A DNA stretch of 64,000 nucleotides from Isurus oxyrinchus (Eukaryota), in the NCBI GenBank assembly GCA_026770705.1, contig JANJGN010000033.1, forward strand, positions 14,508,001 to 14,572,000. The letters run 5' to 3'. The notes under the pieces are model-generated. The model did not search any database and had not been told where the DNA came from. It saw nothing but the letters and a program-made list of their open reading frames with translations. The position numbers and the translations under genes were made by a program. Shown here in pieces: positions 3,331 to 4,305 of the stretch (position 1 is its first letter; each line of letters begins with the position of its first letter).

Positions 3331-4305
3331 CAGAAGATACATTGCAATGCTGAATCGTTGCTCAAAGAAGATTACTTCTTACATTTAACATGGCAGCAAC
3401 CGAAACAGCGACAATGACACGTCATTACTTGATGCCGTTGACAAGGGAACTGTTTGCAAGACACTTCACAGCCACATTATATCAAACAATTTTGGCACAT
3501 GTGAAATAGGGGGATTTCAGGAGAGCTCATCGAAGGCTTCAGCAAATCATTACGTTTGAAAGTGCGCACTTGTTCCTGGTGAGGCAACGGACTTGCGTTG
3601 GCAGGTCATCTCAAGGTGAGCCATGAGACCTAGGTTGCGAACTGCTTGCCAAAGCCTCAGGCAGCCTCCCACGGAGGAGGATTTATGGTGAGTGAACATA
3701 GTTTGAGATGTCGAGCTGCACTGCAAATTGCGACGAGTTGCTGAGCAACAATAAAGTTTGCAAACTATATCGGGAGCAAAATTGCAAGCGCTTTACGTTC
3801 CATGTCCACCATTTCACGTTGGCTTCATGTTTTGCAACATATTGCGTCAGGTCACGCACTTGTTCTGCTCCTAAGTTTGTCTGCTCTGCAAATGAAAGAG
3901 CTGCGTTCAAGCTGCCACTCGTGACATTGCTGCTTCCCTTCCCTGCTCCTCGTAACATGACACTCTTGCCAAATGATCCGTGAATGAGCATTGCTAGGCA
4001 GTGATGTACGAGACCTGACCAGGAAAGACGGGATAAAACTGGTGCACTTCTAGGACGCAATTGAAGTGATATCTGCCTGCCCTTGAATTCTTTCGAGCTT
4101 GTTGCCTGTTGAATTTCAAATGCTGTGCACCCAATGCAACTGCCGCCTCGCCCTCAGGAATATAGAATCAGCCTGAGCCACCTATCGCTCAAGAATATGA
4201 AGAGTGAAAGCCAGGAAAGGCTCTGTAATCAGCAGAGAACTTGAACTCTTCAAGTATCCACTCGCCTGCCTCAAATGTTAACAGCAGCTGGGCAAACAAG
4301 AAACT

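Follow-up and report, generated by a model that had tools for sequence, protein, structure and literature searches.

A tandem array of tRNA-Gln genes on the minus strand fills almost all of the window, the whole stretch of 64,000 nucleotides analysed here, which belongs to a genome of 4.98 Gb. The array includes 72 ungapped tRNA-Gln-like copies in the window (ARAGORN found 56 and Rfam 67) and overruns it by about 6 kb leftward and about 2 kb rightward. Abundant clustered tRNA loci have been described in sharks and rays (bioRxiv 2025.06.08.657570). The copies were assigned to four slot types, A, B, C and D, by the 5' flank of each copy. Slot D genes have a CTG anticodon and are intact, with a T4 terminator in 18 of the 24 D-leader copies. 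Slot A genes (TTG) are intact as well and end in T3CT2 in 20 of 21 copies; degenerate T5-like terminators are functional in human (PMC3141230). Slot C genes have a CTG anticodon and carry lesions at gene positions 9, 10, 11, 13 and 14 in 16 of 18 copies, compared with 1/24 in slot D and 1/21 in slot A. In slot B, the B-box TT is lost in all ten copies and no T4 is present. The array and one example of each slot type are located as follows.

844..63418, minus strand: tandem array of tRNA-Gln (CTG/TTG) genes with slot types A, B, C and D (ARAGORN, Rfam and copy listing)
844..935, minus strand: slot A tRNA-Gln(TTG) gene with its 5' flank, example; variable at -7 to -16/-18
1221..1312, minus strand: slot B pseudogene, example, lacking the B-box T and any T4; its 5' flank is shortened and conserved, and it serves as an internal negative control
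2882..2973, minus strand: slot C gene with a damaged A-box/D-stem and a conserved 5' flank, example; internal negative control
3250..3253, minus strand: T4 Pol III terminator of the slot D example
3259..3330, minus strand: intact slot D tRNA-Gln(CTG) gene, example (Rfam and copy listing)
3339..3350, minus strand: hypervariable core at -9 to -20, example copy

The array is interrupted by an insertion at about 32270-35690. It contains an ORF on the plus strand (32802-34733, 643 aa) that matches RVT_1 and, weakly, GIY-YIG, which we take to be the domain pair of Penelope-like retroelements. The slot B copies at 27983, 38913, 54144 and 60280 share one common deletion, in which the 5' end of the gene and about 400 bp of spacer are gone. 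A slot A copy at 23705-23776 (minus strand) has a TTA anticodon, which would read the UAA stop, and its acceptor and T stems are altered too. The C35 loci contain two TTA copies derived from Lys. Positions 3100-3500 are 100% identical to a 401-bp stretch located 3462 bp leftward (G000:C33:14507638-14508038), and the A copies 844/4306 and B copies 1221/4683 recur at the same 3462-bp period. Either a unit was duplicated very recently or the assembly contains it twice. A second Gln array, inverted and more diverged, lies about 1 Mb away (G000:C33:15536000-15609400, L012-L019). It contains a small internal inversion near 15570900-15572800, and some of its slot types have flanks that are 8-9 bases shorter.

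The 20 nucleotides immediately upstream of the slot D genes had been singled out by the first-pass annotation as hypervariable and constant in length. The ten 20-mers quoted there were all found at their coordinates, and the count of 21 distinct sequences among 22 flanks, with no indel, was confirmed. The TGAATCG motif bordering the flank, described as conserved, is exact in 18 of the 22. Diversity was calculated for 24 slot D copies, namely the 22 in the window and two just left of it. The per-column π is 0.51-0.71 at -9 to -20 (0.30 at -13) and 0.52 at -4, and it is near 0 at -1, -2, -6 and -21, so the edges are sharp. The earlier placement of the variation at -7 to -20 holds for -9 to -20, with -4 in addition, but not for -7 and -8, where π is only 0.08-0.16. 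All four bases are present in 6 of the 14 columns from -7 to -20. The neighbouring spacer is only sparsely variable, as had been noted, with π of 0.037. A test of extra alleles on 23 slot D copies, one exact duplicate being left out, gave 30 in 14 sites against 79 in 240 spacer sites (binomial p 1e-13); no spacer window of 14 columns had more than 13. An edge D copy right of the window was kept only for the distinct-flank and pairwise comparisons, and one slot A copy with a flank 1 nt shorter and four B copies without the 5' end of the gene were left out. Altogether, a segment of 12 bases upstream of intact tRNA-Gln genes is about 10 times more variable than the spacer.

Comparison of the slots revealed two features overlooked in the first-pass annotation: slot A is also hypervariable, with a peak at -12, and the damaged slots B and C have no flank excess. 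The π at -7 to -20 and in the spacer is 0.521 and 0.037 in slot D (n=24), 0.293 and 0.045 in slot A (n=21), 0.047 and 0.038 in slot C (n=18), and 0.076 and 0.019 in slot B (n=10). Minimum-spanning changes per 14 columns behave in the same manner. The flank and the mean of 17 spacer windows taken as the reference have 50 and 4.8 changes in slot D (spacer maximum 13), 24 and 3.8 in slot A, 2 and 3.1 in slot C, and 2 and 1.2 in slot B. The gene body of slot C is the most variable of the four slots (0.080). Flank diversity tracks gene integrity, and the intact copies would presumably be the transcribed ones. The contrast of D and A with B and C is the pattern of active and inactive genes reported for human and mouse (PMC6130373). 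On the other side of the gene, the inner 3' flank of the 19 non-chimeric D genes has π of 0.10 at +1 to +10 against 0.044 at +11 to +40, a difference based on few sites.

The same zone is variable in other arrays. In the Tyr array on C5, 30 of 34 exact-match units were counted, outlier units being left out. The 14 flank sites contain 9 variant alleles and the 1650 spacer sites 27 (39-fold, p 2e-11; π 0.089 against 0.0023). The excess lies at -10 to -19, and nearly all variants are single substitutions. The Tyr array on C6 (36/39 units) gave an 8-fold and a Cys set (4 units) a 4.5-fold excess, so the excess is significant in three of nine other unit sets. In the remaining six sets, no significant excess was found: Ala 2.0, Phe 2.6 and 0, Lys 0.8 and 0.2, and Arg 1.7, the low folds of Lys C35c and Arg being weak negatives, as poor unit alignment inflated their spacer counts. 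Most genes of these six flat sets look intact, and germline silence would explain their missing excess. Dispersed Lys and Asn duplicates vary strongly in this zone, with indels too, behind a conserved upstream block. The second Gln array has the same variable segment. In contigs from two other organisms, the same gene end is joined to the same spacer, the first ten flank bases are kept and -11 to -20 differ; these contigs comprise four loose ends, one being the consensus of 4 contigs in one organism and three coming from the other. Generic A/B-box patterns used as a tRNA-gene search returned few genes or mostly SINEs. Many tRNA-Phe genes (L166-L185, L231-L236, L239-L241, L262-L277) appear by eye to have a tRNA-Tyr 3' end directly upstream that stops about 18-20 bases before Phe. 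The C2 Lys-TTT array (L033-L035) lacks both a T4 directly behind the gene and hypervariable flanks, and is perhaps silent.

Two lineages, of 13 and 11 copies and marked A and C in the list below, can be told apart among the slot D flanks. The π is 0.71 between the lineages and 0.29 and 0.36 within them, and the diversity within each lineage is still 8-10 times that of the spacer. Lineage-linked sites are confined to -4 to -20; outside this range, no site stays linked once multiple testing is considered, the lowest uncorrected Fisher p being 0.047 upstream and 0.02 downstream. The two leader lineages are decoupled from both flanks and have been shuffled across them, and 5 of 24 D-leader genes are chimeras with slot B or C. 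The flanks in the window are as follows.

3331..3350, minus strand: slot D 5' flank, lineage A
10178..10197, minus strand: slot D 5' flank, lineage C
13264..13283, minus strand: slot D 5' flank, lineage C, C/D chimeric gene
16347..16366, minus strand: slot D 5' flank, lineage C, C/D chimeric gene
17771..17790, minus strand: slot D 5' flank, lineage A, B/D chimeric gene
20250..20269, minus strand: slot D 5' flank, lineage A, B/D chimeric gene; recombinant relative to 17771
22729..22748, minus strand: slot D 5' flank, lineage A
25209..25228, minus strand: slot D 5' flank, lineage A
26630..26649, minus strand: slot D 5' flank, lineage C
29679..29698, minus strand: slot D 5' flank, lineage A
36140..36159, minus strand: slot D 5' flank, lineage A
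37562..37581, minus strand: slot D 5' flank, lineage C
40609..40628, minus strand: slot D 5' flank, lineage A
42030..42049, minus strand: slot D 5' flank, lineage C
44063..44082, minus strand: slot D 5' flank, lineage C
47527..47546, minus strand: slot D 5' flank, lineage A, identical to 58927
50988..51007, minus strand: slot D 5' flank, lineage C
52791..52810, minus strand: slot D 5' flank, lineage A
55463..55482, minus strand: slot D 5' flank, lineage A, C/D chimeric gene
58927..58946, minus strand: slot D 5' flank, lineage A
61976..61995, minus strand: slot D 5' flank, lineage C; 13/20 differ from 58927, spacer 4/400 differ
63399..63418, minus strand: slot D 5' flank, lineage C

The pair 17771/20250 had been brought forward as a case of divergent leaders next to some 500 bp that look identical. 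They do differ at 7/20 positions, and on the 3' side the gene and 491 bp are identical, but the spacer on the leader side, on which the first-pass annotation had not remarked, differs too, with 15 further differences in the next ~260 bp. Since the leader-side spacer also differs at these 15 positions, the pair is recombinant; fresh mutation was rejected for it, and a crossover in or near the gene accounts for the difference rather than seven new mutations. The pair 58927/61976 is also recombinant, with 13/20 differences in the flank against 4/400 in the spacer.

About half of the slot D spread comes from the separation of the two old lineages. Recent mutation is best gauged by singleton alleles, which number 7 in 14 sites against 54 in 240 in slot D (2.2-fold, p 0.05), and in slot A the ratio is 1.0-fold; saturation may hide an excess of singletons. 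The first-pass annotation had attributed the diversity to a localised mutator that outruns concerted evolution. The sharp excess linked to activity stands, but mutation alone is insufficient as the cause of the spread, because the two lineages are decoupled from their flanks and the singleton excess is as small as 2.2-fold in D and 1.0-fold in A. Recombination inflates the contrast between flank and spacer as a contributor, not as the source, because six columns hold all four bases and each lineage by itself is 8-10 times as diverse as the spacer.

An explanation with no raised mutation rate would be that old leader alleles form a divergent island, in which conversion homogenises the flanks and the gene and a short mismatched block resists it. 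The tight linkage of the two lineages across -4 to -20 with no linked site outside, the weak singleton excess and the chimeric D-leader genes are what such an island would produce. Yet recombination creates no new bases, so neither the columns with four bases nor the diversity inside each lineage would follow, and the lack of the effect in slots B and C would be left unexplained. The excess of single substitutions in the Tyr array, where the spacers differ by 0.2%, largely refutes the island as the sole cause, and we consider this explanation improbable.

That the variants are consensus errors of the assembly is extremely improbable. They are indeed known from the assembly, and the comparison data are contigs of short-read runs, but they are substitutions with no indel among them, fall within 12 bases, recur in distant units and group into lineages. 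Besides, slots B and C are free of them, and the same segment varies in the contigs of other organisms.

The position of the variable segment depends on the gene family: it lies at -9 to -20 in slot D, -7 to -16/-18 in slot A, -10 to -19 in Tyr and about -4 to -14 in Lys. Each family has, in its majority sequence, a pyrimidine-purine step that coincides with the edge of the segment facing the gene or lies just inside it. A CA is located at -6/-5 in 21/21 slot A copies, and slot D has an A at -8 in 22/24 copies, preceded by a pyrimidine in 19. The example copy contains the following feature.

3338..3339, minus strand: putative pyrimidine-A initiator at -9/-8 (motif from PMC13451320)

In yeast, Pol III starts on the purine of pyrimidine-purine steps, mostly CA, at -9 to -12 (PMC13451320), and leaders of 2-5 nt were given by Thornlow (PMC6130373); the available parts of PMC11662937 and PMC7279448 give no start-site positions. 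The variable segment would correspond to the 11-12 bp upstream of the start site. This assignment is post hoc, and such dinucleotides are common. The idea that each copy carries a barcode in its pre-tRNA leader has become doubtful, since the best putative pyrimidine-purine start coincides with the gene-side end of the variable bases or lies just downstream of it. Because of this position relative to the presumed start motif, most variable bases are probably untranscribed; the barcode would be present in the DNA and likely not in the pre-tRNA.

To polarise the substitution spectrum, the majority base was treated as ancestral in each of the two D lineages, in slot A and in the Tyr array. Of the 58 derived alleles, 31 are transitions and 27 transversions, and 11 of 12 change types are represented. 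Half of them (29/58) arose from A or T, the sites being A19, T11, G16 and C10. With polarity by majority only, 16/58 are C>T or G>A and 15 are A>G or T>C. Deamination by AID/APOBEC was considered in this connection. These enzymes target Pol III loci, and their action at tRNA genes rises with transcription (PMC4359381; bioRxiv 2025.06.09.658696), but the changes reported there are at C, within the gene body in yeast and somatic in human, whereas here A/T are affected about as often as C/G, and upstream of the gene. Deamination alone is a poor fit, the changes not being concentrated at C/G and the segment being located upstream of the gene. The spectrum agrees better with the Pol III effect described in human (bioRxiv 2022.08.20.504670).

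Diversifying selection, or a dedicated diversifier, might tune copy-specific expression through the segment. The sharp edges, with π near 0 at -21 and at -1, -2 and -6, would suit such a process, and 5' flanks can modulate tRNA output (PMC11662937). But the segment lies where the generic hotspot is found in human, mouse, fly and Arabidopsis (PMC6130373), the spectrum is broad, and no template or repeat donor was seen, the sole retroelement ORF in the window being an unrelated insertion. Nothing was found in support of the dedicated diversifying process that the first-pass annotation had allowed for, and we regard it as very improbable.

The inverted repeats of the flanks bear on another proposal, template switching, in which short inverted repeats of the opened promoter would give rise to multi-base changes and palindromes. 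A perfect arm of at least 5 is present in 16 of 103 distinct Gln flanks against 6.3% in shuffles. In slot D, there are 7/23 against 2.0 in simulated point mutation (p ~0.01) and 4 centres against 1.4 (p 0.02). The flanks 37562 and 63399 differ by a compensatory double change, and the slot C flank contains a 14-bp palindrome. This hypothesis was, however, drawn from the same data, the simulation depends on the root, and a single ancestor may have passed on the arms centred at -12.5. By the same statistic, eleven other tRNA families gave 17/170 against 10.5 expected, or 7.2 against 5.8 over 95 clusters of related flanks; the excess is weak in Lys (5 against 2.8) and Cys (3 against 1.5), and the Tyr variants are single substitutions. 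Template switching as the main cause is quite improbable, and it may be that hairpin-driven switching adds to the hotspot in the Gln slot. The slot C palindrome is perfect over 14 bp at -4 to -17 (example 2957-2970) and is kept in most C copies. Palindromes of 12 bp, or 6-bp arms centred at -12.5, are present in the D flanks of the second array and of another organism, and it is possible that the ancestral flank was palindromic.

It is highly probable that the variable segment is damaged in the germline when Pol III initiates, and that the variants are afterwards moved onto new flanks by recombination between units. TFIIIC brings TFIIIB and Pol III to tRNA genes. This recruitment (PMC13451320) would take place, in the germline, at the intact genes. 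The variable segment would be the DNA that separates the TFIIIB/TBP site from the start site, where melting begins; it would be strained and opened again and again, and would take point mutations at about 10 to 40 times the background. Selection would preserve the gene and the initiator and not the variable stretch, the conserved bases nearer the gene being the putative initiator and a short leader, and the flank variants may be neutral. Unequal crossing-over and conversion would spread and reshuffle the variants, a step shown in part by the recombination seen on both sides of the flank. The attribution to a known type of Pol III-associated mutation excess, made in the first-pass annotation, agrees with its presence in the intact slots D and A, its absence from the damaged B and C, and the scattered single substitutions in Tyr.

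The closest known system is the hotspot described by Thornlow in 2018 (PMC6130373) in the 20-nt 5' flank of tRNA genes in four species: human, mouse, fly and Arabidopsis. Divergence peaks there 10-15 nt upstream and drops further upstream, is 5-fold stronger in active genes, reaches a 7-10-fold rate and leaves the gene body conserved. In the array, π is 0.5-0.7 at -9 to -20 in slot D and peaks at -12 in slot A. The excess is 10-fold by minimum changes, 8-10-fold within the D lineages and 6-fold in slot A, being a diversity ratio and not a measured rate. It is stronger in the intact slots D and A than in the degenerate B and C, and the smaller excess in the inner 3' flank has its counterpart, over few sites, in the 19 non-chimeric D genes. 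In contrast to that study, paralogues of one tandem array are compared here instead of species or individuals, duplicated loci of this sort having been excluded in PMC6961574; the edges can be drawn to about 12 nt and differ in position between slots, and C>T and G>A changes, which are in excess in that study, do not seem dominant here beyond the general transition excess. The same phenomenon is in print for nematodes (PMC13010820), and flank mutagenesis has been used as a predictor of gene activity (PMC6961574).

A further parallel is the germline Pol III hypermutation reported in human by Seplyarskiy (bioRxiv 2022.08.20.504670): rates are raised tens-fold, with a 32-fold de novo rate in RNU genes, in active genes only, and the sites are multiallelic with no strong strand asymmetry. 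Restructuring driven by TFIIIB was suggested for the upstream RNU hotspots, and several candidate mechanisms are listed there. Those data are human de novo and rare variants, whereas the rate here would be deduced from the diversity of paralogues in a non-mammal. As for the genomic setting, the Arabidopsis array of 81 genes (PMC2886086) and the shark and ray clusters (bioRxiv 2025.06.08.657570) likewise consist of multi-gene units that unequal recombination has expanded; the available text of both makes no mention of a hypervariable 5' segment. The literature surveyed, mostly non-subscription papers, contained no report of a flank hotspot among tandem-array paralogues or in combination with template switching.

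The effect itself is already known, and the array is most likely a new example of it, among paralogues and with unusually clean controls. Such arrays have their controls built in, with intact and damaged genes interleaved and near-identical units comparable to mutation-accumulation lines. The arrays reduce the target to some 12 bases, hint that its place follows the start site, and speak against deamination as the only cause. The variable segment also constitutes a DNA tag, by which ChIP, ATAC and long reads are assignable to single copies of otherwise identical tRNA genes.
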